DNA of 64,000 bases from Bacillota bacterium (GTDB taxonomy: Bacteria; Bacillota; Dehalobacteriia; Dehalobacteriales; Dehalobacteriaceae): assembly GCA_050952465.1 (NCBI GenBank), contig JBMNKZ010000014.1, positions 26,613-90,612 of the forward strand. Reading direction: 5' to 3'. The notes beneath the pieces were generated by a model, which made no database searches, was not told the DNA's origin, and saw only the letters and a program-made list of their open reading frames with translations. Of this stretch, positions 3,480-44,676 are shown one piece after another. A program made the position numbers and the translations under genes. Position 1 is the stretch's first letter. Each line of letters starts with the position of its first letter.

Positions 3480-4911
3480 TGTATTGGGTAATATTATATC
3501 GTTTAATTCTATATTGTAATGCTTGCCGAAAGATGCCCAGGTCTTGAGCTGTTTGAGTAATATTACCTTTATTTTTATGAAGTGCATCCTCGATTATTTT
3601 CTTTTCAATTTCCTTAAGTATTTCATTTAACTTGCCGTTAGGCTTAATCAAGGCCTGATATTTATGGACCTGTCCCAGAAACCGGTTACGCAAGTAAGGG
3701 GGGAAATGATCTAAATCCAGTACTTTTTCCGCTGGGTCAACCATATTCATCCCACTTTCAATAAAATGCTCCAATTCTCTGACGTTCCCCGGCCAGGAAT
3801 ATTTCATAAACAATTTAAATAATCTGTCCGAAATATTTTCAATGGAAGTTCCAAACTCTTTGTTATACTTTTTTATAAAATAGCGTAATAGAATTGATAT
3901 GTCGTCCATTCGTTCCCTTAGGGGCGGAATATGTAAGGTCACCGCCGCTAAACGATAATACAGATCCTGCCTGATCTGCTTGTCTCTGACTGCCTCGATA
4001 GGATCTTTATTAGTTGAACTGATAATTCTACAGTTCACGGTTTGTTGGGTATTGCTGCCAATCCTCCGTACAGATTTTTCTTGAATCACTCTTAACAGCT
4101 TTGCCTGTAAATGCAGCCCCATAGAATTAATTTCATCTAAAAATAATGTCCCGTTTTCCGCTTGTTCAAACAATCCCGGAGCCTCAACCGCCCCGGTGAA
4201 AGCTCCTTTAACCGTGCCAAAAAGCAGGCTTTCCAGCAAAGTCTCCGGAATAGCAGCACAATTAATTGCGATGTAAGGGCCGTTAGCGAATGCCCCGTAA
4301 TTATGTATACTCTGGGCGAATAATTCCTTACCCGTCCCGGTTTCCCCGCAAATCAGCACGGAAGAATTATTTCGCGCTATCTTTTTCGCCGTTTCTATAA
4401 CCTGAATGATATATTCATTGGAGCCAATAATATCATCAAAGGTAAACTTTGTTCCATTGTTCTTATTGCTTTTTTTGCTGCCGCTTAAACGTTGCTGTAA
4501 TTCGATGGTTTTATCCAGAAACTCTTTCATCTTTGTGACATCCCGATTAACGGAATAAGCACCGACAATTTCTTTCCCTTCGTAGTAAGGAAAGGTACTG
4601 GCGATAACATCTATCCTCTTGCCGTCGACGGTATTATATTGATGGTATTGTTCCAATACCGGTTTGCCCGTGCGCATTACATTAAGGTGGACGCTGTTTT
4701 CCTCTGTCACATCATATACTTCTGTAATTTTTTTGCCCACTACCTCATCCCGCTTTAATCCTTCAAACTGTTCGCTGGCCCGGTTATAGAGAATAGTTAT
4801 TCCCTCTGTGTTGGTAAGCTGTACTCCTTCGTGAATTGCATCCAGTACCGTTCTCAGCCATTTGTTTTCCCGTTTCAGTTGGTTTAGTTCGGTGTTGAAT
4901 TTATCTTCCAC
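3472..4911 (-). CDS. Sigma-54-dependent transcriptional activator (PAS-AAA+-Fis HTH)
   Basis: N-terminal PAS-like region, Walker A GETGTGKE, the GAFTGA sigma-54 contact motif, and a C-terminal HTH (NITQTAQDLGIFRQALQYRIKRY). Confidence 0.9.
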   Translation of the reverse strand: MEDKFNTELNQLKRENKWLRTVLDAIHEGVQLTNTEGITILYNRASEQFEGLKRDEVVGKKITEVYDVTEENSVHLNVMRTGKPVLEQYHQYNTVDGKRIDVIASTFPYYEGKEIVGAYSVNRDVTKMKEFLDKTIELQQRLSGSKKSNKNNGTKFTFDDIIGSNEYIIQVIETAKKIARNNSSVLICGETGTGKELFAQSIHNYGAFANGPYIAINCAAIPETLLESLLFGTVKGAFTGAVEAPGLFEQAENGTLFLDEINSMGLHLQAKLLRVIQEKSVRRIGSNTQQTVNCRIISSTNKDPIEAVRDKQIRQDLYYRLAAVTLHIPPLRERMDDISILLRYFIKKYNKEFGTSIENISDRLFKLFMKYSWPGNVRELEHFIESGMNMVDPAEKVLDLDHFPPYLRNRFLGQVHKYQALIKPNGKLNEILKEIEKKIIEDALHKNKGNITQTAQDLGIFRQALQYRIKRYNITQYMQ

Positions 4912-4953
4912 TAAGCGACACCCCGCATATGAATTAGGATTTTTAATGCTATA

Positions 4954-5754
4954 CTATACATGCCCGTAATAATCCCTGTGTACCACAACTGAATATGCAT
5001 AATCCAACAATGTCCCCCAGCTAAAAATGGGTAAATCAATTTCCCTTTGTACGGCTCTGGCAAATGGCTGCATCCCGGTACATTCCAGCATCACCGCACC
5101 AACATTAGGATGTTTAACGCACATATCTTGACACATTCTGATCATGTCCCGTTCAGCTTTGTCATAGTGACACTCTGGAATTAGGGGACGTTTGCTGTGA
5201 TCCCACAATGCGTCAAATTGAGTACAGTTATACTCGTCTTCTGCACCGATAATGAAAAAATTGCTATTTAAATCTATTCCTACGCTTTCTAAATGCCTGT
5301 CGGATAAATATTTCTTTTGGGCTGAGACAATTCCCACTGATTTTTTAGGGCCGATCACCCGTTGAATCAAAGGTACCTGTAACAAGCTAGACATAAATAC
5401 AGGTATATCTACATATCCGGCAACCTCCTTTTGAAAATATGCGAAATAACCGCATTCTGCGGCAATTGCCCGGCAGCCCATACCCTCCAATTTTTTTGCC
5501 GCACGGAGGATAGGCTCAAGACAAGGACTTTTATCTTCAGCACAAACTAAAGTATAGGTGTCTACACCTTCCGCTACTTCATACTGAATCGGGTAAGGAA
5601 ATGCACTGGCATTTCTCACATCTCCGGGAAAACCGGGATAAGCATCATCCAAAATAATAATTCCTAAACCCATCCCATAGCAGCAATGGTTTTTACGGGT
5701 TTTTATATAATTAATACCTAGATCACGATTGCCATACCACAAAGTTCTTTTCAC
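4954..5754 (-). CDS. Asp/Glu/hydantoin-racemase-superfamily-like protein (function unknown)
   Basis: The N-terminal LGIIILDDAYPGFPGDVRNASAFPYP pattern resembles uncharacterised Asp/Glu racemase-family proteins, judged from memory only. It is tightly linked to the upstream MttB-family gene (13-nt gap). Confidence 0.4.
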   Translation of the reverse strand: MKRTLWYGNRDLGINYIKTRKNHCCYGMGLGIIILDDAYPGFPGDVRNASAFPYPIQYEVAEGVDTYTLVCAEDKSPCLEPILRAAKKLEGMGCRAIAAECGYFAYFQKEVAGYVDIPVFMSSLLQVPLIQRVIGPKKSVGIVSAQKKYLSDRHLESVGIDLNSNFFIIGAEDEYNCTQFDALWDHSKRPLIPECHYDKAERDMIRMCQDMCVKHPNVGAVMLECTGMQPFARAVQREIDLPIFSWGTLLDYAYSVVVHRDYYGHV

Positions 5755-32098: not shown

Positions 32099-33094
32099 TT
32101 AAATCTCGATACTTGTTATCCACTTAACTAAATCTGCAATCATTGTACCGCTCTTTGTTTCATCAGCCATGCTTTCCAAGGCGGAAACAAGAGCTTCCTT
32201 TTCTAAAGAAAGGCCCTTCAGCACCTGGGGTATTTTTCGGATTAATTCTTCATCCATGGCATCAGAATAAACGGTACAGGAATCAACTTTTCCGTTATGG
32301 AGACGAAAACCAAAGTCAATTTCTCCCCAGTTAAAACGTTCTGATAAGGTTAAGTCAAAGGTGGGTGACTGGCCGAAACGCCATTCCCAAGAAGCATATT
32401 TAGTATAATTTGCTAAGATTTCAGGATCCTTTTCATTAATAGAAATTTCTACCGGCCGCCCGTAAGATTCTCCAAAACTTTCCGCTAAACTTTCCTTAAC
32501 CGCGGTTACAGTAATCCGATCAGAAACTTCTGCCAGGTTGACTACCCTAGACCGGACAGAATCCACTCCCTTTGATTTCATTTTCTTTTTAGAGGGCTGA
32601 AGGTAACGACTAAGCTTCTCCATATCTGTCTTGATCAGAATTGCTCCATGATGATAAGCTGATTGGCCCTGATAATAATAAGCATGACCGGAGAATTTAC
32701 GACCGTCCAACATGAGATCATTGCGTCCGGAAAATTCCGCATTCACGCCCAATTTCCTTAAAGCCTGTAAAATCACGGATAACTGCCTTTCCAATTCATA
32801 ATGTTTCTTAGTAGTGAGAAAGGTAAAATTTAAGTTACCCAGATCGTGAAAAACAGCTCCTCCCCCGGAAAGCCTTCGGGCCAGCTTGCCCCCGTCCTTT
32901 TCCAACTGCTCCCAGGCACATTCTTTCCAGGCATTTTGATTCCGGCCGATGACCACTGTTTGGTCGTTTTGCCAAAGGTAAAGAATCACTTCGTGGTCAT
33001 GAACATGATTCAATAAATATTCCTCCACCGCTAAATTAAACCAAGGGTCATAAGAGTGTGAGTAGACAATTTTTGTGTCCAGTTTTTCCGTCAT
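32099..33094 (-). CDS. Lipoate-protein ligase (LplA/LplJ family)
   Basis: 331 aa. RRLSGGGAVFHDLGNLNF and GRKFSG motifs. It is located beside the gcv/lpd genes. Confidence 0.85.
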   Translation of the reverse strand: MTEKLDTKIVYSHSYDPWFNLAVEEYLLNHVHDHEVILYLWQNDQTVVIGRNQNAWKECAWEQLEKDGGKLARRLSGGGAVFHDLGNLNFTFLTTKKHYELERQLSVILQALRKLGVNAEFSGRNDLMLDGRKFSGHAYYYQGQSAYHHGAILIKTDMEKLSRYLQPSKKKMKSKGVDSVRSRVVNLAEVSDRITVTAVKESLAESFGESYGRPVEISINEKDPEILANYTKYASWEWRFGQSPTFDLTLSERFNWGEIDFGFRLHNGKVDSCTVYSDAMDEELIRKIPQVLKGLSLEKEALVSALESMADETKSGTMIADLVKWITSIEI

Positions 33095-33183
33095 TTTTTC
33101 ACCTCACTAAAATTGTACCGGGGGAATTATGATTCGCCCGCTGTTTTGAACGCCCCGCAATTTCCGATGTACACGGAGATACC

Positions 33184-34584
33184 TTATCTTCCGCCGGGCA
33201 TAATATGAATGGCCTTATTCTCTATCCCAGCGACAGCTTCCATGACACTTTCCGCCAGAGTAGGATGGGCATGAATGGCGCGCCCCATCTCCCCGGTGGT
33301 TAAACCATGTTCCACGGCCAGCACGCCTTCATGGATCAAATCACTGGCATGAGGACCTAAAATATGCACCCCAATTACTTTTTTTGTCTCTTCTTCCGCT
33401 ACAACTTTCACCAAACCATCAGTTTCTCCCATGGTTAAGGCCTTGCCGTTGGCAACAAACATAAACTTGCCGGTAAGGTAGGAAATACCCCGTTCTTTTG
33501 CAGCTTCTTCCGTTAATCCTACCGAGGCAATCTCCGGGAAAGAGAACACACAGGAAGGTACGGCATCATAATTAATGTGTCCTTCCAGGCCCAGCATATT
33601 TTCCACAGCTGCTTTGCCTTCATCGGAAGCAACATGAGCCAGCATTTGGCCGCCAATCACGTCACCAATGGCATAAATTCCGGGCACCGATGTCTCAAAG
33701 CGGCTGTTAACTTTAATGCCGCGCCGATCATAAGCCACGCCGACTTCGTCCAGATTAAGACCATCAATATTGATTGATCTTCCGGCAGAAACCAGTACCA
33801 TTTCTCCGAAAAATTCCTGTTCTCCTTTTTTTCCTTCCGCCAAGACCTTAAGTTCTCCGTTTTCTTCCTTTATTTCTTTAACTTTGATACCTGTTTCAAT
33901 TTTGATGCCCTGTTTCTTTAAATACATGGCCGCTCTTTTTACAATCTCTTCATCAACAGGAGGAAGAATTCGGGGCAGAAACTCAACTACCGTCACCTGA
34001 GTCCCAAAAGAATTGAAGATACCGGCAAATTCAATGCCCACCACACCTCCGCCGATAATTACCATGCTCTTGGGAACATGATCCAGTTCTAACGCTTCAT
34101 TGCTGGTGATCACACCAGGTAAATCCAGACCGGCAATGGGAATTTTCGCCGGCAGCGAACCGGTGGCAATAAGGATATTCTTGGCTTTAATCAATTCTTT
34201 GCCGCCGGTAGGGGTAGTAACAGCCACCGTGTTTCTATCCACTAGGCTGCCTCTTCCCGATATTACCTCCACCCGGTTTCCTTTTAGTAATTGCTCCACC
34301 CCGGAACAGAGGCGGCTAACCACATTTTGTTTTCTCTCTTGAACTTTCTGCATATTCAATGAATACTCTTTGAGTTCAATGCCGAAGTGTGAGGATTTAT
34401 TCAAAGTATGCATAATTTGGGCGTTTTTATATAAAGCCTTGGTGGGAATACAACCCCTGTTTAAGCAGGTTCCACCCACCTTGTCATCTTCAACTAAAGT
34501 AACCTTTGCTCCCAGCTGGGCTGCGCGAATCGCCGCCACATATCCTCCGGGGCCGCCGCCAATCACCACTAAATCTTTGTCCAT
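33184..34584 (-). CDS. lpd: Dihydrolipoyl dehydrogenase (E3 / L-protein)
   Basis: VVIGGGPGGY FAD fold, redox-active GGTCLNRGCIPTK, and the C-terminal HAHPTL interface motif. Confidence 0.9.
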   Translation of the reverse strand: MDKDLVVIGGGPGGYVAAIRAAQLGAKVTLVEDDKVGGTCLNRGCIPTKALYKNAQIMHTLNKSSHFGIELKEYSLNMQKVQERKQNVVSRLCSGVEQLLKGNRVEVISGRGSLVDRNTVAVTTPTGGKELIKAKNILIATGSLPAKIPIAGLDLPGVITSNEALELDHVPKSMVIIGGGVVGIEFAGIFNSFGTQVTVVEFLPRILPPVDEEIVKRAAMYLKKQGIKIETGIKVKEIKEENGELKVLAEGKKGEQEFFGEMVLVSAGRSINIDGLNLDEVGVAYDRRGIKVNSRFETSVPGIYAIGDVIGGQMLAHVASDEGKAAVENMLGLEGHINYDAVPSCVFSFPEIASVGLTEEAAKERGISYLTGKFMFVANGKALTMGETDGLVKVVAEEETKKVIGVHILGPHASDLIHEGVLAVEHGLTTGEMGRAIHAHPTLAESVMEAVAGIENKAIHIMPGGR

Positions 34585-34690
34585 TTTATCATCTCCTCAC
34601 ATATTAGCCATCCTGCAATCATCTATATCTTTCAGCATCTATATCTTTTTTTATACCATCCTAAACATAGCGAAGAATCTAGAATTGCAA

Positions 34691-34711
34691 GGGTTGCATA
34701 CCATGCAACCC
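34691..34711. repeat. Palindromic hairpin element (family 2), copy a
   Basis: gggttgcat-acc-atgcaaccc, a perfect 9-bp stem in the gcvPB-lpd spacer. Confidence 0.5.
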
Positions 34712-34768
34712 AGATACATCTACATCATTTGTAATAATCCAATCATTTAATGCAACATAATTATTTCA

Positions 34769-34794
34769 TGGGGGCTGCATACATGCAACCCCCA
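34769..34794. repeat. Palindromic hairpin element (family 2), copy b
   Basis: tgggggctgcat-ac-atgcaaccccca. It has the same TGCAT..ATGCA core as copy a and lies 43 nt downstream of the gcvPB stop. Confidence 0.5.
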
Positions 34795-34836
34795 TATACC
34801 ACTATCATTTTATTGAAGAAGCATATTATTGAACCC

Positions 34837-36291
34837 TTACATGGGTTTCCACCGCAATACCGGATTACGGGCCGCTCCGGCTTCATCCAATCGGGCAACC
34901 ACTGTAGTATGGGGTGCCGATTTGACTTTCTCCGGATCATTCTCTACCTCTGCAGCAATTTGCCTCAGCACGTTGATAAACTCATCCAAAGTCTCCTTAC
35001 TTTCCGATTCGGTGGGCTCAATCATTAATGCCTCATTTACAATGAGAGGGAAATAAATGGTCGGGGGATGATAGCCAAAGTCCAAAAGCCGTTTGGCAAT
35101 ATCCAAGGTAGAAGCCCCCTGATTCTTTTGTTTCTGCCCCGAAAAGACACACTCATGCATGCAGATCCGATCATACGGGAGAAGATACAGGTCTTTCAGC
35201 TTAGCCGCAATATAGTTGGCATTTAAAACTGCCGCTTCGCTGGCTTGACGTAATCCTTCACCACCCATACTCATAATATAGGCAAAGGCTTTTACCACCA
35301 CATTAAAGTTGCCGTAGAAGGATTTCACCTTGCCAATAGAGAGGGGCCGGTCATTATCCAGAATGTATTTACCATCTTTTAATTCAACCACCGGTTTCGG
35401 AAGAAAGGGTACCAGGTCTTTTTTAACGCCTACCGGCCCCGATCCTGGTCCTCCTCCGCCATGGGGAGTACTAAAGGTTTTATGCAAATTCAGATGCACT
35501 ACGTCAAAACCCATATCTCCCGGACGGGTAATACCCATAATAGCATTGGCGTTGGCCCCGTCGTAATAGAGAAGTCCCCCTGCCTGATGGATAATATCAG
35601 CGATTTCCTGAATATTTTCGTCAAATAATCCAAGAGTATTGGGGTTGGTCAGCATTAAACCGGCAATTTCATCATTCATCAGCTCTTTCAGGGCATCCAC
35701 ATCTACGCCGCCTCTGGAGTCAGACTTCACTTCGATGACATCAAACCCAGTAACGGCAGCAGAAGCAGGATTCGTTCCATGAGCGGCATCTGGAATTATC
35801 ATTTTATTGCGCTTAGTATCCCCCCGGTGCTCATGATATGCTTTAATAATCATTAACCCGGTCATTTCCCCGTGAGCTCCGGCGGCAGGCTGCAAAGTTA
35901 CCCGTTCCATACCGGTAATCTCTGAGAGCATTTGATCCATAGCATACATTAGTTCCAGAGACCCCTGGACTGTATCTTCCGATTGGTAGGGGTGAACTTT
36001 GGTAAATCCGTCCAGGCGGGATACAAATTCATTCACCTTTGGGTTATATTTCATGGTACAGCTGCCTAAAGGATAGAAACCGGAATCCACTCCATGATTG
36101 CGCTGCGACAATTGGGTGAAATGGCGTACGGCATCAAGTTCACTAACCTCAGGCAGATTTGGGGAAACAGTCCTTAAGAGTTCTTCCGGAATCATTTCCT
36201 CCATCTTTTCTTCCGGGACATCACAGGGAGGAAGTGAGTAGGCAACGCGCCCGGGTTTGCTCATTTCAAAGATTAAGGCTTTTTCCTTCAT
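34837..36291 (-). CDS. gcvPB: Glycine dehydrogenase (decarboxylating) subunit 2
   Basis: 484 aa with the PLP-lysine region [16 protein letters not shown]. Confidence 0.95.
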
Positions 36292-36292
36292 C

Positions 36293-37630
36293 CTATTTCC
36301 CCACCTTTCTTACTAAAGAATCAATTTCTTCCTTCGTTCTTTTTTCCGTAACAGCAATTAACCAGCCATCTGCCAGTTCCGAATAACTTCTTCCCAGGGG
36401 ATACCCTCCGATAATTTGGTCTTTTAATAGTTTTTGGTTTAATTCCTCCACGTTCGCCATACTCTTCACTGCAAATTCTTTAAAGAAAGGAGCGGTAAAG
36501 AGAGGAGTAAATTTCCCTGTGTTAGTAAGTTCTTTAAAGGCATAATGTGATTTGTTCAGGCATTGGGTAGCAACTTCCTTCAACCCCGCCTTACCCAGGA
36601 AGGTTAAATAAATCGTCGCCGTCAAAGCATTAAGAGCCTGATTGGAGCAAATATTAGAGGTCGCTTTTTCCCTACGGATATGCTGTTCTCTGGTTTGAAT
36701 GGTCAGTACAAAACCTCTCCGGCCAAATTTATCCTTGGTTTGCCCGACAATACGACCGGGCATTTTGCGCATTAACTTTTCCGTTGCAGCAAAAAAACCT
36801 AAGTAAGGCCCGCCAAAACTAACAGGATTTCCTAACGCCTGGCCCTCTCCTACAACTATATCAGCCCCTAATTCCCCAGGTGGTTTAAGCAGGGCTAATG
36901 AAATCGGATCCACACTAACGATGAAAAAGCTTTTATTTTTATGGGCTAATTCACCTATTTCTTTTAGTGACTCGATCACACCGAAAAAGTTAGGGCTTTG
37001 CACAAGGACAGCAGCAATCTCCGGGGTAAGTTTCTCTTCCAGGTCTTTTAAATCAACTTGCCCGTTGACATAGCCTATTTCTTCGCTTTGTACCCCTCTA
37101 AACCTGGCGTAAGTATTGATAACCTCTCTACTTTCCGGATGCACAGAATTGGCAACTAACACCTTTGATCTTCTGGTAGCCAGACAAGCCATTAAAGCTG
37201 CCTCTGCCAAGGCACTTGCCCCATCATACATGGAAGCATTAGCCACATCCATCCCGGTCAACTCACAAATCATGGTCTGGTATTCAAAAATTGATTGGAG
37301 TGTCCCTTGGCTGATTTCCGGTTGGTAAGGGGTATAAGCCGTGTAAAATTCCTGCCGGGAAATAATCTGATCAATGGCACTGGGGATAAAATGGTCATAA
37401 GCGCCGGCCCCCAGAAAACATGGATACTCATCTAAATGTGAGTTTTTCCGGGCTTTATCCTTCATTAACTTAACCAGTTCTATTTCAGAAAGAGCTTCGG
37501 GAAGAGCTAAAGGTCTTTTTAAACGTACTTCTTGAGGAATATCTTGAAATAGCTCCTCGGTGCTATTAAGACCGATGGCTGACAGCATCTCCTTCTGCTG
37601 CTCCGGCGTATTTGATATATATCTGGACAC
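36293..37630 (-). CDS. gcvPA: Glycine dehydrogenase (decarboxylating) subunit 1
   Basis: 445 aa. FLGAGAYDH and [14 protein letters not shown] motifs. Confidence 0.95.
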
Positions 37631-37632
37631 GT

Positions 37633-38016
37633 TTAGTCCTCCTCTGCACAGAGCTTCTCGTAATCAGCAGCATCTATTAATTTATCCAATTCTGCCGGAT
37701 TACTTAATTCCAAGGAAATCAGCCAGCTTTCAAAAGCGTCTTCGTTAACTTTTCCCGGATTATCCAATAAATCTTCATTAATTTCCTTAACTACTCCGGA
37801 GACCGGAACATAAACGTCAGCAACTGCCTTAACTGATTCAATTACCCCTAAAGCATCGCCAGCAGCCAGTTCGGCTTCCTCTTCGGGCAATTCCACAAAA
37901 ACAATTTCTCCCAAATGACCTTGGGCATAATCAGTAATACCAACATAAGCTTTGTCCCCGTCAACTTTAACCCACTCATGAGTCTTGGTGTACTTTAATC
38001 CACTAATAATTTTCAC
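37633..38016 (-). CDS. gcvH: Glycine cleavage system H protein
   Basis: Lipoyl-lysine motif [10 protein letters not shown] and HEWV near the N-terminus. Preferred GTG start at 38016 (RBS GGGGGA) gives 127 aa. The track ORF is extended upstream to 38106. Confidence 0.9.
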
Positions 38017-38132
38017 AATAAAATCCCCCTTATTTTTAATTATTTTATTTGCCTTTCTAAGCGGAGCAAAGGATCTTAGGATCTCCGTCCTTATATCACC
38101 GCTCATTGCAAAATTTTCACTATAAGCATTAA

Positions 38133-39227
38133 CTATTTTTTATATTTTTTACTATAAAACGGTTTTTTAATGATCTTGGCCTTTAAATTCCTATTCCGAA
38201 CAACAACCTCAATTTCCTCGCCTTCTTTAGCATATCCAGCATCAATCAGGGCTAACCCGATATTCTTCTTTAAAGTGGGCGAGTAACTTCCTGTGGTGAC
38301 AAAACCAATTTTTTCACCGTTAGCTTTAACCTCATAATGACTGCGGGCAATACCCCGGTCTACCATCTCAAAACCTACTAATTTTCTCGGAATACCGGCT
38401 TCCTTTTGTTTCGCTAAAGCTGCTTTACCAATAAAATCTTCCTTATGTAATTTGACAAAAAAACCTAACCCTGCCTCCAGGGGAGTGATATCTTTATCAA
38501 TTTCCTGACCATATAATGGGAGAGAAGCCTCAAAGCGCAAGGTATCACGAGCACCCAACCCTGCCGGCACTAACCCTTCCTCTTTGCCTACTTCCAACAG
38601 TTTATCCCAAATCAATGGTGCGTCCGCCGGATTCAGGTAAATTTCAAACCCGTCTTCACCGGTATACCCCGACCGTGATATTAAGGTTGATACTCCATGA
38701 ATTTTAACTTTAGGCTGAAAGTAGAAAAAACCAATCTGATTTAAGTCTGTATCGGTAAGTTTTTGAAGAATCATTTCTGCTTTTGGCCCTTGAATGGCTA
38801 ATTGTGCGTACTCTTCCGATACGTTTTTGACTTCCACATCCCCTTCGACGTGATCCAAAAACCACTGTACATCCTTATCAGTATTAGAAGCATTAATAAC
38901 GAGAAGATAATCCTCATTATTATATTTATAAACTATTAGATCATCTACTACTCCGCCGTCTGGGTAACACATCGGGGAATAATAAATTTGGAAATCATGC
39001 ATAGGGGCAATATCATTCGTTATCATCTTCTGAATATACTTTTCTGCATCGGGACCTTTCACCGTAACTTCCCCCATATGAGACACGTCAAAAAGCCCGG
39101 CTGCGGTTCGCACCGCCTCATGCTCCCCTATAATGCCTTGATACTCTACCGGCAGGGCCCAACCTCCAAAATCAATTACTTTTCCCTTAAGTTCCACATG
39201 TTTTTCATATAAAGGCGTTTTCTTCAT
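38133..39227 (-). CDS. gcvT: Aminomethyltransferase (glycine cleavage T protein)
   Basis: 364 aa. [10 protein letters not shown]...[10 protein letters not shown]...[21 protein letters not shown]. Confidence 0.95.
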
Positions 39228-39245
39228 ACTTTCTCTCCTTTCACA

Positions 39246-39259
39246 ATTATTTATTTCAT
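39246..39259. repeat. 14-nt direct repeat flanking the IS (left copy)
   Basis: attatttatttcat, identical to 41017-41030. Candidate target-site duplication. Confidence 0.5.
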
Positions 39260-41016
39260 AGGCGTTTGCGAAACACCGCAGCCCGCATAAATACAGGCTT
39301 TTGTTAACGTTTTTTATATATAACTCCTCTCCAAAATGCGGTAAAATTAAGTTGTAAACAATAATAAAACAACATCTCGGAAAGGAGTTATAAACTAATG
39401 GTAAGGCCTAAACAATTATCTCTCGCCGATATTTATTCCGACTGTAATAATGTTTTTGAAAACGATAAATATCATTTTCTATCGCTTCTTGAAGATAACA
39501 TTAATCTTGAGGAACTTATTCCTGCTTCCTTCTATACTCACTTTTATTCCTATTTTGGCAGAAAGCGTATATACCCTCTTTCCGGTTTCCTTTGGGCACT
39601 GATCCTTCAGCGAATTTTCTCCATCCCCACTGACTCACTTCTTTTAATCTTTCTCCAATACTCAAAGGAACTTCGTGACTTTTGTGGTTTTTCGAAGGTT
39701 CCCGATGCCTCTAAGATCACCAGGTTCAAGCAGGAGTTTCTAATGGACTTACAATCATTTTTCGATTCACTTGTTGATGTCACCGAACCGATATGCCAAA
39801 AGATTAATGCATCCCTTGCCTCCATGACCATCTTCGATACTTCCGGCATCGAAGCCTTTGTTACTGAAAACAATCCCAAGTATGCCAACCGCATTATCAG
39901 TCAGCTAAAAACTTTTAAGAAAGCAATGGGGCTCGATAACTCCTATGACCCCTACAAAGCAGCCTATAAATCCATGCCTTCCCATGCTGCTTCAAACCAG
40001 GCCATTAAACAGCTCTACATCAATGGACATTTTTGCTATGTTTTCAAGTTTGGTATTATTACCAACGGTCTTGGTATTGTCCGTGACATCTCTTTTTACA
40101 ATAAAGATTTCATAGATGCTCACCCGGACATTATTGTGGAAAAGAAAACCGATTCTCCCGAAGAAGATAAATCCCTTGGAGATGCCAAAGCCCTTATCCC
40201 TGTTCTTAATGATTTTTTTGATAAGCATCCTTTAATCAATCCAAAGGTTTTCCTCGGCGACGCTGCTTTTGACACGGTTAACATCTATAAATCCCTGTTT
40301 ACTGAACTGAATTTTGAAAAAGCATACATACCTCTTAATTCTCGTTCTGGGCTTGGAAACCAGGACTATACCATTAACGAAGATGGTATTCCTTGCTGCC
40401 CTCAAAATCTTCCTATGAAACCGGAAGGCAGCAAATCTAACCTAAAATGCGGGATTCCAACTTTTAAATTTGTCTGCCCTAAAATGTCCTGGGACAAGTG
40501 CGACGATGGCAAATATCGCCGCCGTACCCACTGTGATAATCCTTGTACTGACTCTCTGTGCGGACGAATGCTTTACGTTTATCCCGAGAAGAATCTTCGC
40601 GCTTACCCCGGTACAATCCGTGGCACCGAGGAATGGGATAAAACCTACAAAATTCGTTCCGTTGTTGAAAAATCTATTAACCATTTCAAAGATAGTTTTT
40701 GTCTTGCCGGTCGCAGAACCCAGAATGAAAAGACATTACATGCTGATTTATTATTAGCCGGCATTACCCAGTTAATCACGGTTGTTCTTGCTGACCGCAT
40801 TCATAAACATGAATACATTCGCAGTCTGAAGCCACTCATTGCATAGAAATATATTGTAATTCCATATACCTATCCCTTGGGGGTATTTCCTGCGCCCATT
40901 TTTTCTACCTACACCAGAAGTAAAACTTTTTAGCCTTTTCGTCCTGAAAAAAATTTAATTTGTATTGTTCCCAAGCCATCTTGAACTTTTTATTCTAGTC
41001 CATTTTGCAATTACTT
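39260..41016 (+). mobile_element. Insertion sequence (IS5/IS1182-like, single DDE transposase ORF); ends approximate
   Basis: A transposase ORF flanked by non-coding arms and bracketed by identical 14-nt direct repeats. Weak terminal similarity (left ..TTGCGAAA.., right reverse-complement ..TTGCAAAA..). It interrupts an otherwise contiguous riboswitch-gcvT leader. Confidence 0.6.
39398..40846 (+). CDS. DDE transposase (IS5/IS1182-like)
   Basis: 482 aa. The N-terminal transposase-domain pattern ([31 protein letters not shown]) resembles InsH/DUF772. It also has a central DDE region (LGDAAFD) and a Cys-rich segment before the C-terminal catalytic part. Confidence 0.8.
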
Positions 41017-41030
41017 ATTATTTATTTCAT
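41017..41030. repeat. 14-nt direct repeat flanking the IS (right copy)
   Basis: attatttatttcat, identical to 39246-39259. Confidence 0.5.
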
Positions 41031-41072
41031 CTTATATCCTTAGTTATAGTCCCCCCTTTTTTTCCTATTATG

Positions 41073-41110
41073 AAAACAAAAGGCACAGCATTAAATAAAA
41101 TGCCATGCCT
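41073..41110 (-). terminator. Riboswitch expression-platform terminator
   Basis: Minus strand reads GGCATGGCATT-ttattt-AATGCTGTGCC followed by TTTTGTTTT. It lies immediately 3' of the second glycine aptamer. Confidence 0.6.
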
Positions 41111-41276
41111 CTGTCTTTTGACCTGAGAGTTTAACTGATTAACAGTTTGCTCCTTCGGTGTCTTTAAGACTTTCCAGAGTTGAGTCCCGATACGGTCCCG
41201 GAACCTGAAAGTTTCGCTGCAATTTGGCACAAATTGAAGCTTGCTTCTTCGGTGTCACAAAGGACTCTCCCGTACC
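41111..41276 (-). promoter_or_regulatory. Tandem glycine riboswitch
   Basis: Aptamer 1 on the minus strand is ACGGGAGAG...CACCGAAGAAGCAA...CTTTCAGGTTCCGGGACCG. Aptamer 2 is CTCTGGAAAG...CACCGAAGGAGCAA...CTCTCAGGTCAAAAGACAG. These are the conserved glycine-riboswitch cores. Confidence 0.85.
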
Positions 41277-41326
41277 AATCATACCCATTTAATATATCAT
41301 TTTAAATTTTTCATGTTTTTATTAAT

Positions 41327-41356
41327 GTTACCATTAAAGCAACAAAATGTCAATAT
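41327..41356. repeat. Approx. 30-nt direct repeat, copy A (downstream of Na/Pi gene, upstream of riboswitch)
   Basis: gttaccattaaagcaacaaaatgtcaatat. Its first 20 nt are identical to 43340-43359. The minus strand contains TTGACA-17 nt-TAACAT. Confidence 0.5.
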
Positions 41357-41387: not shown

Positions 41388-43040
41388 CTATAGAGATGGG
41401 GGATATTTTTTCACCTCGTTATAATCTACAGTAATTTCCTTGCAAAATTTATATATATGGTCGGCAATTCTCTCCAAGTAATTAACCATATCAATAAAGA
41501 TTACACCGGCTTCTACCGTACAGTCCCCTGTTTCCAGTCGATTAATGTGTTCTTTCACCAAATTTTCAGATAGGGCGTCTATTTTTTCTTCAAGTTCATC
41601 AACTTCCTTTATTGCTTCAGGATTATTTTCCTCAATAGCCTGAATGGATTTTTCAAACATCTCCATAATACCTGCTTCCATTTCTTTTAGCCCTTGAATT
41701 GCTATATTACTAAATTGCAGATTGCTGTCCATTTTAATACTAATTTGAAAGATCAGACTCTCCGCATGATCCCCAACCCTTTCCAGGTGATTAATGCCAT
41801 TGATTATAGCCGGAATCATGGCTGATTGGGATCTTAAAAGGGGTTGTTTAGATAATTCCACGGTATAAGCCGTAATATTCTGCTGTAGTTGATTTAGTAT
41901 TTCTTCGTCCTGATTGACTTGAGCAAACTCACTTGTATCATTTTTGTACAAACCATTCATCACACGAGACAACATCCCTTGTGCCAACTTTGCTGCCCGG
42001 ACGCTCTCAGTCTGAGCGGCTTTAATTGCTGCCACAGGTGTATCCAGAAGCAGTTTGTCCAGATATACAGAAGATTCGATGTCTTTACCTCGAATAATAG
42101 TTTCCAAGAATTTCACGTAATATTTATTAATAGGGAGAAAAACTATCGCACTGAAAATATTGAAAATTGTATGGGAATTAGCAATCTCCGCACTGATACC
42201 CCCTCCTGGCTGAAAATATTGTGTAAAAAGTTGGGTCACAGATATAAACCAAGGAAGGAGCAAGGCCACCACAAATACCCCAAAAATATTATATATAGTA
42301 TGTGCCCAAGCAGTACGACGAGCATGAATATTCCCAGTTAAACTAGCCATCTGGGCCGTGATACAGGTTCCAATATTGTCACCCAGCATAATTAAAATAG
42401 CGGTTCTTAAATCTAATAAACCCGCCATCCCCAAGACCATCACCAGACCAACGGTAGCACTGCTGCTGTGCACTAAGGCAGTTGCTACTGCACCCAGTAA
42501 AATCCCGACAATAGGTATAGACGCATAATTAGTGAAGAAAAACTTTAGAGTCTCACTGTCTTTGATGAAGGGAATCCCTGAATTGAGGATCTTCAGGCCA
42601 AGGAACATAATACCAAATCCCATGATGGCATTACCTAAATGCTTGGTGAAATCCCTGCGGGCAAAGTAAGCTATGGCAAATCCGACCCCTAAAACCGGAA
42701 GGGCAATATCAGTCAATTTAAATTTAAAACTAAAGGCCATTAACTGAGCCGTAATTGTAGTACCAATGTTGGCCCCGTAAATAATCCCAACAGCCTGGGG
42801 AAGCTTCATTAAACCGGCATTTACAAACCCTACAGTCAGAACGGTGATGGCCGTACTGCTCTGTACAAGAGCTGTAAGAATAATCCCTACAAAAAAAGCA
42901 CTCCATACGTTGCCAGTAAGAACAGCCAAAATATGTTTCATCATTTTACCGGAAGCCTTTTCCAAGCCATTTCCCATCTTGTCCACACCATACATAAGTA
43001 AGGCTGTCCCGCCAATAAGTCCAAAAATAAGTTCTTGCAT
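41388..43040 (-). CDS. Na/Pi-cotransporter family protein with C-terminal PhoU-like domains
   Basis: NaPi-II repeats (QSSTAITVLTVGFVNAG / HSSSATVGLVMVLG) and C-terminal PhoU-like helices (LERVGDHAE, LERIADHI). Preferred start is ATG 43040 (MQELIFG). The track starts at TTG 43070. Confidence 0.85.
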   Translation of the reverse strand: MQELIFGLIGGTALLMYGVDKMGNGLEKASGKMMKHILAVLTGNVWSAFFVGIILTALVQSSTAITVLTVGFVNAGLMKLPQAVGIIYGANIGTTITAQLMAFSFKFKLTDIALPVLGVGFAIAYFARRDFTKHLGNAIMGFGIMFLGLKILNSGIPFIKDSETLKFFFTNYASIPIVGILLGAVATALVHSSSATVGLVMVLGMAGLLDLRTAILIMLGDNIGTCITAQMASLTGNIHARRTAWAHTIYNIFGVFVVALLLPWFISVTQLFTQYFQPGGGISAEIANSHTIFNIFSAIVFLPINKYYVKFLETIIRGKDIESSVYLDKLLLDTPVAAIKAAQTESVRAAKLAQGMLSRVMNGLYKNDTSEFAQVNQDEEILNQLQQNITAYTVELSKQPLLRSQSAMIPAIINGINHLERVGDHAESLIFQISIKMDSNLQFSNIAIQGLKEMEAGIMEMFEKSIQAIEENNPEAIKEVDELEEKIDALSENLVKEHINRLETGDCTVEAGVIFIDMVNYLERIADHIYKFCKEITVDYNEVKKYPPSL

Positions 43041-43266
43041 ATTAATTCTAATCCTCCCATATACTATCAATAAAGTCTTTAACTGAATATGTGCTTTTCC
43101 ATCCTTATTCTACACATAAAATTCATTAATGCAAATGGAAAAAACATAAAACTTAAAAAAATTAACCGGATCCTTAAGGAATTATTAATTAAAAAAAGAA
43201 TACCTTGACCCTTTCGCTCATTTCAAAGAAGTTGCCCGTCAGATGGTTTTATACTACTTATTTATG

Positions 43267-43306
43267 ACAAAACATAAAGGCCGCGACCCCTATAGGGATT
43301 GCGGCC
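43267..43306 (-). terminator. Terminator downstream of purD (end of pur operon)
   Basis: Minus strand reads GGCCGCAATCCCTA/TAGGGGTCGCGGCC (12 of 14 positions paired) followed by TTTATGTTTTG. Confidence 0.5.
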
Positions 43307-43339
43307 ATTTTTCTGTGAGTTTGGTGTAAAAGTCAGGAC

Positions 43340-43368
43340 GTTACCATTAAAGCAACAAACGTCACTAT
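43340..43368. repeat. Approx. 30-nt direct repeat, copy B (downstream of purD)
   Basis: gttaccattaaagcaacaaacgtcactat. See copy A at 41327. Confidence 0.5.
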
Positions 43369-43401
43369 TTACTTTTGTCTAATTATAATACTTTAATTTG
43401 C

Positions 43402-44676
43402 TTAATTGCGTAATAAATTTAAAGCTCTTTTACCAATATCAGTTCGATAATGCATATCATCAAAGTTGATTTTCTTTACATACTGATACACATGTTTGAT
43501 TGCTTCTTCCACTGTTTTACCTTTTGCCGTCACACCCAGCACCCGACCTCCGGAGGTTACCAAAACTCCTTCCCGGAAAGACGTCCCTCCATGAAAAACA
43601 TATCCATCAGGGTACGTGAGTTCCAACCCTCGAATCTCTTTCCCGGTTTCGTAGTGTCCCGGATAACCACCGGATGCCAAAACTACACAGACAGCAGCTT
43701 CATCAAACCATTCAATTTTCTGCTGATCCAGACGTCCCTCCAGAATCGCTTCAATAATATCAATCAGGTCAGTTTTAAGACGCATCAAAACCGGCTGAGT
43801 TTCCGGATCTCCAAAGCGGGCATTGTATTCCAAAACCTTTACTCCGGTAGATGTTAGCATTAATCCGGCATAAATCACGCCCCGGTAAGTCCGGCCTTCT
43901 GCTTTCAGTCCGGCAATGGTGGGTTTTAAGATCTTCTCTAAGGTAATTTGGGCAATTTCTGAAGTATAAACAGGAGCGGGAGAATATGCTCCCATGCCAC
44001 CGGTATTAGGCCCTTGATCATCATTAAACACCCGTTTGTGATCTTGTGCCGAAACCATGGGGACGACATGATCCCCATCAGTGAAAGCCAAAATGCTGAC
44101 CTCTTCTCCTGTTAAATACTCTTCAATGATCACCTTAGCCCCAGCTGTTCCAAAAATCTGATCTTCCATGATTTCTTTTACAGCTCTCACAGCGGTTTCT
44201 GTGTCAAAAGCGACAATTACGCCTTTACCTGCCGCCAAACCATCTGCCTTCACTACAACGGGTGCTCCTATTTTTTTGATATAGGTTATGGCAGGTTCTG
44301 CTTTATCAAAAACACGATATTCGGCAGTTGGGATCTGGTACTTTTCCATAATCCTTTTTGCTAAAGCCTTGCTCCCTTCTATTTCCGCCGCCTCCTGGGA
44401 AGGCCCAAAGATCTTTAAACCAGCGGAAGAAAATTTGTTTACAATCCCCGCTACCAGGGGAGCCTCCGGGCCAACTACCGTCAAATCTATTTCTTGGTCT
44501 TTTGCAAAGCTTAGCAGCCTGTCTATATCATTAGCGGCAATATCAACACACTCCGCCAATTGGGAAATCCCGGCATTCCCCGGAGCACAATATATTTTAC
44601 TTACTCTTGGGCTTTGAGCCAATTTCCAAACCAGGGCATGCTCCCGGCCTCCTCCGCCTACCACCAGTATTTTCAT
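43402..44676 (-). CDS. purD: Phosphoribosylamine-glycine ligase
   Basis: MKILVVGGGGREHALVWKL, ATP-grasp. Preferred start is ATG 44676 with RBS GGGGAG. Confidence 0.95.
   Translation of the reverse strand: MKILVVGGGGREHALVWKLAQSPRVSKIYCAPGNAGISQLAECVDIAANDIDRLLSFAKDQEIDLTVVGPEAPLVAGIVNKFSSAGLKIFGPSQEAAEIEGSKALAKRIMEKYQIPTAEYRVFDKAEPAITYIKKIGAPVVVKADGLAAGKGVIVAFDTETAVRAVKEIMEDQIFGTAGAKVIIEEYLTGEEVSILAFTDGDHVVPMVSAQDHKRVFNDDQGPNTGGMGAYSPAPVYTSEIAQITLEKILKPTIAGLKAEGRTYRGVIYAGLMLTSTGVKVLEYNARFGDPETQPVLMRLKTDLIDIIEAILEGRLDQQKIEWFDEAAVCVVLASGGYPGHYETGKEIRGLELTYPDGYVFHGGTSFREGVLVTSGGRVLGVTAKGKTVEEAIKHVYQYVKKINFDDMHYRTDIGKRALNLLRN

Follow-up and report, generated by a model that had tools for sequence, protein, structure and literature searches.

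A Transposed Insertion Sequence Splits a Tandem Glycine Riboswitch from Its gcvT Operon and Belongs to a Family that Appears to Insert beside Ribosome-Binding-Site Motifs

Tandem glycine riboswitches of the type that precedes gcvT in Bacillus subtilis (RF00504) are ON switches composed of two aptamers and a terminator that overlaps P1, with the gcvT-H-PA-PB genes located downstream. The stretch of 64,000 nucleotides analysed here (the window) carries a riboswitch with the same components but, unlike the usual arrangement, an insertion sequence (IS) of 1759 bp lies between its expression platform and the ribosome-binding site of gcvT. This locus raises the question of how a ligand-sensing leader came to be separated from the genes it faces, whether such a site is typical for the mobile element involved, and what might now govern expression of the operon.

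The initial annotation of this DNA described a tandem glycine riboswitch and terminator at 41073-41276, facing gcvT on the minus strand, and covariance models bear this out. Aptamer 2 scores 54.5 bits (E 1.9e-8) and aptamer 1, when scanned alone, scores 49.7 bits, both above the RF00504 gathering score of 32. The two aptamers adjoin each other, as in a tandem-type member of this family. The tandem model RF03166 (glycine-GGAnGA variant) matches 41107-41286 with 78.2 bits, which is below its gathering score of 110 bits, and the riboswitch is filed under RF00504 instead. The terminator overlaps the 3' strand of the aptamer 2 P1 stem, as in ON switches. The gcvT-H-PA-PB operon, also named in the initial annotation and recognised here by Pfam, lies downstream of this P1-competing terminator on the same strand, now 1.8 kb off, and its GcvT protein aligns with homologues at 100% coverage. 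A promoter-like site upstream of the riboswitch is the best of the region, with 10 of 12 consensus positions matched, and is a consensus match alone.

Table 1. Features of the riboswitch, insertion sequence and gcv gene cluster, in window coordinates.
Feature	Position	Strand	Basis or remark
Promoter-like site upstream of riboswitch	41325-41353	minus	TTGACA-17-TAACAT, TG before -10
Glycine aptamer 1	41187-41282	minus	RF00504
Glycine aptamer 2	41101-41187	minus	RF00504
Intrinsic terminator	41070-41112	minus	terminator-like hairpin with T-run; stem 41112-41079 + TTTTGTTTT
Native gcvT leader, upstream remnant	41030-41069	minus	aligns with leaders of L028, L029 and L030
Target-site duplication, right copy	41018-41029		12 bp, TTATTTATTTCA
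Insertion sequence	39259-41017	plus	1759 bp, T...A; ends TAGGCGTTTGCGAAAC...GCAATTACTTA
Transposase ORF	39398-40846	plus	482 aa; DUF772 N-terminal domain (Pfam, significant)
Transposase control region	39318-39387	plus	inverted repeat, conservation, compensatory changes
Transposase Shine-Dalgarno (SD)	39379-39387	plus	GGAAAGGAG; in control region
-10-like TAAAAT	39342-39347	plus	in control region
Anti-SD	39318-39332	plus	ATATAACTCCTCTCC; pairs with transposase SD
Candidate outward promoter	39317-39345	minus	TTTACC-17-TATATA; 8/12, weak, read from sequence
Subterminal hairpin	39281-39298		GCCCGCA-TAAA-TACAGGC; IS left end
Terminal hairpin	39261-39277		GGCGTTT-GCG-AAACACC; IS left end
Target-site duplication, left copy	39247-39258		12 bp, TTATTTATTTCA
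gcvT Shine-Dalgarno	39233-39241	minus	AAAGGAGAG; GGAG starts 21 nt outside IS end
gcvT	38133-39227	minus	Pfam
gcvH	37633-38106	minus	Pfam
gcvPA	36293-37630	minus	Pfam
gcvPB	34837-36291	minus	Pfam
gcvT-gcvH-gcvPA-gcvPB-lpd-lplA cluster	32099-39227	minus	six ORFs, all intact

The DNA that separates the riboswitch from gcvT had been read as an IS of about 1.76 kb with an oppositely oriented transposase, a description that agrees with the ends and the single plus-strand ORF found here. Two observations support its reading as an autonomous IS. First, its ends recur unchanged in multiple contexts: the 1759-bp element is present at 100% identity, with zero mismatches, in 10 independent contigs from other samples, which include at least five distinct left flanks and at least five distinct right flanks, and contigs L013 and L014 consist of the IS only (1761 bp and 1759 bp). 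Second, a duplication abuts both ends. The initial annotation reported 14-nt direct repeats bracketing the IS, and an exact 14-nt match (ATTATTTATTTCAT) is indeed present at 39246-39259 and 41017-41030. However, because the independent copies fix the ends at 39259 and 41017, within 1 nt of the repeats, the true duplication is 12 bp rather than 14 bp. The two extra matching bases, one IS base per end, are IS termini that equal the flanking bases by chance. The other copies of the IS, which had been proposed as a check on its ends, thereby correct the repeat by these two positions. The probability of 12 matches in a fixed register by chance is about 1e-7, which rules out a chance repeat, and perfect duplications of 11-13 bp are found at 12 independent sites. 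A repeat search of the region reported no terminal inverted repeats; on visual comparison, TAGGCGTTTGCGAAACAC agrees with the reverse-complemented right end, TAAGTAATTGCAAAATGG, at about 11 of 18 positions. The IS is present as a single copy in the window. In some metagenomic contigs (L008, and also L006, L007 and L011), sequence from different IS copies has been joined into a chimera, such that not every flank pair represents a true site; L008 joins the left flank of another site to the riboswitch flank, and L001 is a mosaic.

The arrangement that preceded the insertion is evident in relatives (L028, L029 and L030/31) whose GcvT proteins are 81-86% identical to that of the window. In these genomes, the glycine aptamers and terminator reside directly upstream of gcvT, and neither a 1.8-kb spacer nor a transposase intervenes, which settles in favor of insertion a comparison that the initial annotation had put forward. 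Furthermore, the leader of these relatives aligns to the window both before and after the insertion point, and by this alignment the upstream leader remnant is now cut off from the gcvT ribosome-binding site. When the IS and one copy of the duplication are removed in silico, the spacing between the terminator's T-run and the ATG of gcvT comes to 74 nt, where about 75 nt had been estimated. On the basis of these comparisons, we conclude that a 1759-bp IS, a candidate DDE-type element, transposed into the gcvT 5' leader, duplicating 12 bp and leaving the ribosome-binding site of gcvT cut off from both riboswitch and terminator.

Could the juxtaposition instead be an assembly artefact, wherein a repeat was collapsed or wrongly joined while in reality the riboswitch adjoins gcvT? 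IS-bearing metagenomic contigs are demonstrably chimeric in places (L008 and L001), as such an artefact would have it, but a 12-bp sequence that is single-copy in the relatives is perfectly duplicated at the two junctions. Moreover, the junctions recur independently, the left one in L001 to L004, the right one in L027 and L008, and the two together in L010, whereas the empty junction is in no contig found. We consider an artefact to be extremely improbable.

Because the IS copies show zero mismatches and the gcv ORFs are intact, the data support, if indirectly, the earlier proposal that the insertion is recent. All assemblies of the strain that were located have the IS; the source samples are JGI 3300061346, 3300061563 and 3300062814 and SRR31066179, SRR31066156 and SRR31061295. 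Among contigs with an identical GcvT or Na/Pi-PhoU protein, none offers an empty site at strain level, and each contains or ends in the IS. Specifically, an exact look-up of GcvT returned four contigs, all containing or ending in the IS, and a look-up of the upstream Na/Pi-PhoU protein returned no contigs with the TTG start and one, which is IS-bearing, with the ATG start. A 24-mer spanning the rebuilt junction (TCACAATTATTTATTTCATCTTAT) has no match in metagenome_contigs, a collection that does not include this organism. This search is uninformative because the IS-end pattern of the strain itself is also absent from that collection, in which the pattern is represented only by six diverged loci.

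The transposase places the element in a family of ISs that is widespread among Clostridia and still unclassified (ISNCY signifies 'not classified yet'). NCBI gives the name ISNCY family transposase to homologues with 73-74% identity, and there are about 3,700 transposase homologues at E < 1e-20. Cultured carriers of relatives of the element include Clostridium felsineum DSM 6424 (p330, ahead of a GH43 gene), Clostridium saccharobutylicum, Butyrivibrio proteoclasticus B316 and Alkaliphilus metalliredigens QYMF. A PDB sequence search with the transposase returned nothing significant. By its sequence features, this ISNCY-labelled element can be described as resembling the IS4 and IS1182 families. 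The best NCBIfam match is NF033551 (IS1182) and the DUF772 N-terminal domain is common to both, but the score of 57.5 bits is far below the equivalog cut-off of 270 bits, and IS1182 membership was rejected. IS4 family members have a YREK signature, duplications of about 10-13 bp, and termini tabulated as CA or CAT (PMC2266710). The window element is IS4-like in having a single transposase ORF without a frameshift, a Y-2-R-3-E-6-K signature and 11-13 bp duplications (PMC2266710). Unlike IS4 elements, its ends are TAGGCG.../...ACTTA with poor terminal inverted repeats, its N-terminal domain is the DUF772 typical of IS5 and IS1182, and its match to DDE_Tnp_1 (E 0.0028) scores 17.9, short of the 23 required. 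A few of the homologues do have a precomputed PF01609 assignment, and candidate catalytic motifs (DTSG, GDAAFD and the YREK glutamate) can be read by eye in the transposase.

Is the gcvT leader an unusual place for this element to reside? Across the family, GGAG or GAGG starts 17-22 nt outside the IS left end in 28 of 31 distinct left flanks, whereas positions taken at random from the window show this in 7.7% of cases (binomial p ~2e-28). Each left flank was counted on its own for this comparison, because chimeric metagenomic contigs can pair flanks of different IS copies. The interval between the left end and the motif comprises the AT-rich duplication of 11-13 bp plus 3-7 nt, and the transposase gene points away from the motif in every case. 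Start codons fall 25-37 nt beyond the left end, most often at 31 nt. In practice, members of the family come to lie about 31 nt ahead of a start codon, where they part a gene from its promoter or leader. Given that 28 of the 31 insertions follow the motif rule, the gcvT site is a normal target of the family. Four sites exhibit the motif with no usable start codon: L047 (inside a resolvase ORF), L043 (a hairpin), L009 and L038. Since these sites retain the motif nonetheless, the AAGGAG-like DNA motif itself appears to be recognised. From the flanks of these surviving insertions, we conclude that insertion at the family level is non-random, with one AAGGAG-like motif enriched at a fixed distance and in a fixed orientation.

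An alternative explanation for this pattern is purifying selection, in which insertions land in any AT-rich DNA without target recognition and the survivors are those upstream of genes. Every insertion counted, whether from a genome or a metagenome, is one that has survived, and thus selection could sharpen the rule; in addition, Firmicute 5' UTRs typically have AT-rich tracts beside purine-rich SDs. Selection, however, would not confine 28 of 31 insertions to one orientation and to a spacing range of about 6 nt, and it does not account for the four sites that have the motif at the right distance without a usable start codon, one of which (L047) is in coding sequence and another (L043) at a hairpin. 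Likewise, the G/C ratio of the transposase coding strand is 0.70-0.84 in nine family members versus 1.17-2.06 in eight host genes, and this inverted skew fits the footprint of a long-standing fixed orientation. Selection as the sole cause is therefore improbable in our estimation, and we favor recognition of the motif.

The open-access literature yielded no description of an IS that targets SDs or ribosome-binding sites, or of an IS in a glycine riboswitch leader. The insertion sites of IS5, IS481, IS10 and IS50 are not known to be tied to the SD, in contrast to those of the ISNCY-labelled family. One report (PMC10132070) describes IS1202-family elements of the ISAjo2 group whose insertions share one orientation and lie 5 bp away from dif/pdif sites, on the XerC side. 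The two systems are alike in that insertion is oriented and takes place a set, short distance away from a small host DNA motif, and they differ in that the transposases are unrelated, the motif is SD-like rather than a recombination site, and the host range is different. What appears to be new, therefore, is a family that inserts in an oriented manner just upstream of ribosome-binding-site motifs. If confirmed, this would be a new kind of target specificity in the IS repertoire, and it would provide an annotation rule for elements located about 31 nt upstream of start codons and reading away from the gene. Choice of an SD motif as the target would also explain why the element is found between leaders and genes, as with thiE in a TPP-riboswitch operon, where the IS lies between thiM and thiE (L018), and with the gene for glycine--tRNA ligase, which the IS precedes (L053). 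No Rfam match to a T-box was obtained in the 255 nt at hand upstream of the latter insertion. Such placement would make the ISNCY-labelled family a systematic rewirer of gene regulation.

What, then, might be the consequences for gcv expression? The translation signals of gcvT survive because its SD, spacer and start codon are untouched, and gcv transcription would now have to cross the IS or start within it. The operon may effectively be silenced, if the IS is polar and the riboswitch drives a dead-end antisense transcript, in which case gcvTHP would decay over time. The glycine cleavage system is dispensable under many conditions, which would allow for such a loss. Silencing is also consistent with the 1.76 kb of untranslated antisense RNA between promoter and SD, with the convergent transcription expected from the transposase promoter, and with the quality of the outward promoter candidate in the window, which matches only 8 of 12 positions and lacks the conserved final T of the -10. 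Yet all six ORFs are intact, and the insertion is present in every strain assembly, from several samples, and is therefore tolerated. Furthermore, the genes behind a family member can be important ones, and the copies before glycine--tRNA ligase and in the thiM-thiE operon would argue against full polarity; the antisense strand is also C-poor and without strong terminators. We view silencing as the foremost of three possible outcomes, if one that falls somewhat short of an even chance.

Alternatively, read-through from the riboswitch promoter could run antisense through the IS, giving an attenuated but still glycine-responsive gcv transcript along with antisense RNA against the transposase. 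The antisense strand of the window IS holds one weak terminator-like site, and none were detected on this strand in three diverged relatives; this absence is not significant, given that shuffled sequences give a mean of 0.6-1.8 per region. The C/G ratio of the antisense strand is 0.69, and because the strand is C-poor, the antisense RNA should be a poor Rho substrate. That glycine-dependent read-through keeps an attenuated gcv response is thus a tentative proposal that we find possible rather than likely.

Finally, a candidate promoter at the left end that reads outward might render gcv expression constitutive and independent of glycine. Transcripts that start there would carry a 5' UTR of about 80 nt containing the two left-end stem-loops. 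Several features are compatible with this scheme. A homologous TTTACC-17-TATATT sequence, matching 9 of 12 positions, occupies the same place in diverged relatives (L049 and L035), and the family always sets its left end beside an SD. The subterminal hairpin also seems to be maintained specifically on the outward-reading strand: among 19 variants, its non-Watson-Crick pairs are C.A on the plus strand, which corresponds to G.U on the minus strand, and this asymmetry suggests a single-stranded role for the left end on the minus strand. Moreover, outward or fusion promoters of other ISs change the expression of neighbouring genes, as for IS5 at fucAO (PMC11894529) and IS481 in Bordetella pertussis (PMC6161684), and in comparison the window IS has a candidate outward promoter. 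However, the matches of 8-9 of 12 are at chance level, equal to scores of shuffled sequences, and provide no evidence of function. Read on the other strand, the outward -35 is the transposase -10, and the outward -10 overlaps the anti-SD pairing region; because of these overlaps, conservation of the hexamers does not require a promoter. The window copy also has the poorer TATATA. An outward promoter that drives gcv is accordingly an unlikely explanation.

Taken together, insertion into the leader, the target rule of the family and the inferred ranking of the outcomes for expression very probably give the best explanation for this locus. Regardless of which outcome applies, the locus is a clean natural experiment in which a ligand-sensing leader of a well-understood type has been placed 1.76 kb from its operon with all translation signals intact. 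A more speculative notion, which we consider doubtful, is that the ISNCY-labelled family is a dedicated 'regulatory-uncoupling' element, combining SD-motif recognition and oriented insertion with either an outward promoter and 5' stem-loops or a terminator-free, C-poor antisense passage. If this were true, each transposition would swap or buffer native control (riboswitch, T-box or operon context) without destroying the gene, and the glycine-induced operon of the window would have been converted to one controlled by the IS.

The left end of the IS also exhibits an inverted repeat formed by the anti-SD and the transposase SD, with the -10 between its arms, and the pairing is backed by compensatory changes. 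In IS10/IS50-type elements, sequestration of the SD protects against read-in, and the anti-SD/SD repeat gives the left end of the window IS a likeness to these systems.

The leader of the gcv operon carries, on the minus strand, a tandem glycine riboswitch and a terminator facing gcvT, as the initial annotation had claimed. Both aptamers exceed the gathering score of their Rfam model, and the tandem-specific model RF03166 matches 41107-41286 with 78 bits, which is below its cut-off of 110. The terminator hairpin overlaps the 3' strand of the closing helix of aptamer 2, a predicted architecture that is the usual layout of an ON switch. On the same strand, Pfam identifies gcvT followed by gcvH, gcvPA, gcvPB and the genes for dihydrolipoyl dehydrogenase and lipoate-protein ligase, all of which are intact. 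The listed gcvH open reading frame (37633-38106) has 157 aa, whereas contigs of the same strain (L002-L004) give a 127-aa product that begins 30 codons further downstream; this later start is probably correct.

Between riboswitch and gcvT lies an oppositely oriented transposase gene, and an exact-protein look-up of its product returned ten contigs from other samples, all sharing the same 1759 bp with zero mismatches. Two of these contigs (1759 and 1761 bp) are practically nothing but the insertion sequence (IS), and the set displays at least five different left and at least five different right flanks. All copies are bounded by T...A, and the perfect duplications around relatives (L009, L015, L016, L018, L032 and others) adjoin the element only when the IS is taken to include this T and A; the element therefore spans 39259-41017. 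The 14-nt direct repeat reported initially (ATTATTTATTTCAT) is indeed exact at 39246-39259 and 41017-41030, but the true target-site duplication is 12 bp, the repeat reaching 14 nt because the target-adjacent bases equal the IS termini by coincidence. The chance of 12 matches in a fixed register is about 1e-7. No second copy of the IS was found in the 64-kb window. The presence of an IS between the glycine riboswitch and gcvT is thereby confirmed, with its ends and duplication length corrected.

Features of the gcv leader, the inserted element and one related insertion
Feature	Coordinates	Strand or location	Evidence and remarks
gcvT	38133-39227	minus	Pfam; intact
Target-site duplication, 12 bp, TTATTTATTTCA	39247-39258 and 41018-41029		
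Terminal hairpin	39261-39277	left end	alignment
Subterminal hairpin	39281-39298	left end	alignment
Anti-SD	39318-39332	left end	alignment
-10-like TAAAAT, conserved (TGGTAAAAT in most relatives)	39342-39347	left end	alignment
Transposase SD	39379-39387	left end	alignment
Transposase ORF, 482 aa, DUF772 domain	39398-40846	plus	Pfam; between riboswitch and gcvT
Terminator hairpin, 14 pairs, then TTTTGTTTT	41112-41079	minus	
Glycine aptamer 2	41101-41187	minus	Rfam RF00504, 54.5 bits (gathering score 32)
Glycine aptamer 1	41187-41282	minus	RF00504, 49.7 bits, stretch scanned alone (gathering score 32)
Promoter-like site TTGACA-17-TAACAT, TG upstream	41353-41325	minus	region's best match
TPP aptamer (Dehalobacterium sp. 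MAG)	L018:5857-5956		

The searches turned up no allele of this strain without the IS: all four contigs with an identical GcvT run into the IS, as does the sole contig with an identical upstream Na/Pi-PhoU protein, and a 24-mer spanning the empty junction has no match in metagenome_contigs, a collection without this organism. The closest relatives, whose GcvT proteins are 81-86% identical (the nearest named genus, Sedimentibacter, is at about 73%), have glycine aptamers, terminator and gcvT in direct succession without a transposase. Deleting the IS and one duplicate leaves 74 nt from the terminator to the gcvT ATG, in agreement with the compact leader of about 75 nt proposed before. This rebuilt leader aligns with those of the relatives on both sides of the insertion point, across the AT-rich tract that was later duplicated and the AAAGGAGAG ribosome-binding site. 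Because independent copies place the IS ends at 39259 and 41017, within the repeats, and because related genomes have no transposase-free equivalent of the long spacer, the initial reading of a recent insertion into the gcvT leader stands, supported by these sequence comparisons. In relatives, we observed two clearly separate glycine aptamer matches (L028:48-135 and 365-459; L030:3314-3414 and 3590-3694), which lie between purD and gcvT with a spacing of about 175-230 nt and suggest two riboswitch units. The window differs in having a Na/Pi-cotransporter/PhoU gene (41388-43040) between purD and its single tandem riboswitch.

Finding an IS in a riboswitch leader is nothing unusual, and what this case appears to add is a target rule that holds across the family. 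We pooled every distinct left flank (the left end being the transposase-promoter end, nearest gcvT) from the copies in this strain, in genomic, metagenomic and viral contigs and on plasmids; with one tandem copy left out, these represent 31 independent sites. Reading outward, positions 1-12 (the duplication) are nearly all A/T, and positions 16-23 are nearly all purines with a peak of AAAGGAG. At 28 sites a GGAG or GAGG begins within positions 17-22, versus 7.7% of random window positions (binomial p 2e-28); AAGGAA or GTGAAG takes its place at the remaining three. Most sites place the start codon of a real ORF 25-37 nt from the left end (mode 31). In every case this ORF points away from the IS, and the transposase and the ORF thus diverge. 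With GGAG at position 21 and ATG at position 31, the gcvT insertion is a textbook target.

Such a pattern might reflect selection that keeps only promoter-proximal copies. However, four sites (L047, L043, L038, L009) have the motif properly spaced but lack a usable start codon, which argues that the DNA motif itself is recognized. At one of these, in Clostridium saccharobutylicum (CP006721; L047:1310-1361), the coding sequence of a serine recombinase (resolvase) is broken by the IS, whose left end keeps the customary spacing to an internal AAGAAAGGAG, and so the motif does not have to be a genuine ribosome-binding site; in L043 it lies in a hairpin stem. Furthermore, the transposase coding strand has a G/C of 0.70-0.84 in nine family members (window 39398-40846, L016, L020, L032-L035, L047 and L049) versus 1.17-2.06 in eight host genes of the window. 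This inversion would be the expected product of long-term residence antisense to host genes, and supports the targeting as an independent footprint. Oriented targeting of ribosome-binding-site motifs seems statistically solid as judged from surviving insertions. We found no description of such SD-motif specificity in the open-access literature searched. Its nearest analogue comes from IS1202-family elements, which insert in one orientation 5 bp from dif sites (PMC10132070).

The left end, aligned over 20 variants, displays the five elements listed in the table. Pairing between the anti-SD and the transposase SD is backed by compensatory changes (TAA/TTA becomes CAA/TTG, and L033 has TAT/ATA) and resembles the arrangement in IS10 and IS50, where translation of read-in transcripts is blocked. 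In the subterminal hairpin, across 19 variants (window 39281-39298 and homologous positions in L015-L049), each non-Watson-Crick pair reads C.A on the plus and G.U on the minus strand wherever the alignment is correct, and one C-G pair has changed to T-A with full compensation. Taking the two hairpins together, 22 non-Watson-Crick pairs have this C.A/G.U polarity and two the opposite one. The pattern suggests that the outward-reading (minus) strand folds, as RNA or as single-stranded (bottom-strand) DNA, although the independent changes are few and mutational bias is possible.

The family is large in Clostridia (about 3,700 proteins with E below 1e-20), and plasmids from Clostridium felsineum, Roseburia and Butyrivibrio carry copies. 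NCBI applies the label 'ISNCY family transposase' to homologues from Alkaliphilus metalliredigens with 73-74% identity. The best NCBIfam match, IS1182, scores 57.5 bits where the cut-off is 270; Pfam DDE_Tnp_1 is matched below threshold, and sequence search detected no PDB relative. A 15-residue stretch fits the Y-2-R-3-E-6-K signature and family duplications measure 11-13 bp, both hallmarks of the IS4 family (PMC2266710). Unlike IS4, the termini are not CA/CAT, and the terminal inverted repeats are poor. We file the IS as an unclassified element that resembles the IS4 and IS1182 families.

For gcv expression, the insertion leaves the gcvT SD, spacer and ATG intact. The operon may be silenced and effectively off, which we consider quite possible though short of probable. 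Read-through from the riboswitch promoter across the antisense IS seems slightly less likely, and several observations are consistent with it. On the antisense strand, a single terminator-like site, itself weak, lies at 40190-40174; in three diverged relatives such sites are absent, which is not significant. The antisense RNA is moreover C-poor (C/G 0.69, no C-rich 100-nt window). Rho loads on C-rich, G-poor RNA, and this transcript should thus be a poor substrate. An outward promoter in the left end of the IS could also drive gcv, although we rank this third and as rather unlikely: the candidate is TTTACC-17-TATATA in the window (8/12) and TTTACC-17-TATATT in L049 and L035 (9/12). These scores are at chance level, and both hexamers coincide in part with elements under other constraints. 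Elsewhere, a family member flanked by a verified 11-bp duplication precedes the start of a gene for glycine--tRNA ligase by 29 nt (L053:1-297; JGI 3300033889 contig Ga0373411_0023548). Such a gene is normally essential, and no T-box was detectable in the 255 nt of right flank at hand. Another, with 89% nucleotide identity, sits inside a TPP-riboswitch operon of a Dehalobacterium sp. MAG (JAXGQR010000003; L018:2137-5956), between thiM (4923-5732) and thiE (2137-2838), with 26 nt left to the start codon of thiE. Here, for the second time, the family parts a riboswitch from a gene it controls. These two locations suggest that the IS is not fully polar.

Several metagenome contigs (L008, L006, L007, L011) join IS flanks in combinations that lack a duplication and match flanks of other copies; L008 combines the left flank of another site with the riboswitch right flank. 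Short-read assemblies evidently cross the IS repeat chimerically, and flank-pair analysis needs caution. In L001 (JGI 3300061346 contig Ga0603615_1074), window 40244-36593 is followed by 580 nt of unrelated sequence (3653-4232) and then by window 42614-44487 inverted. Either this contig was assembled chimerically or gcvPA and the Na/Pi-PhoU gene have been truncated by a rearrangement. On plasmid pCY360 of Butyrivibrio proteoclasticus B316 (L034:1250-3200), two copies stand head to tail, each preceding the same 14 bp, CATTTATTTATAAA (IS-TSD-IS-TSD), the result of either another insertion into the regenerated target or unequal exchange between duplicates.
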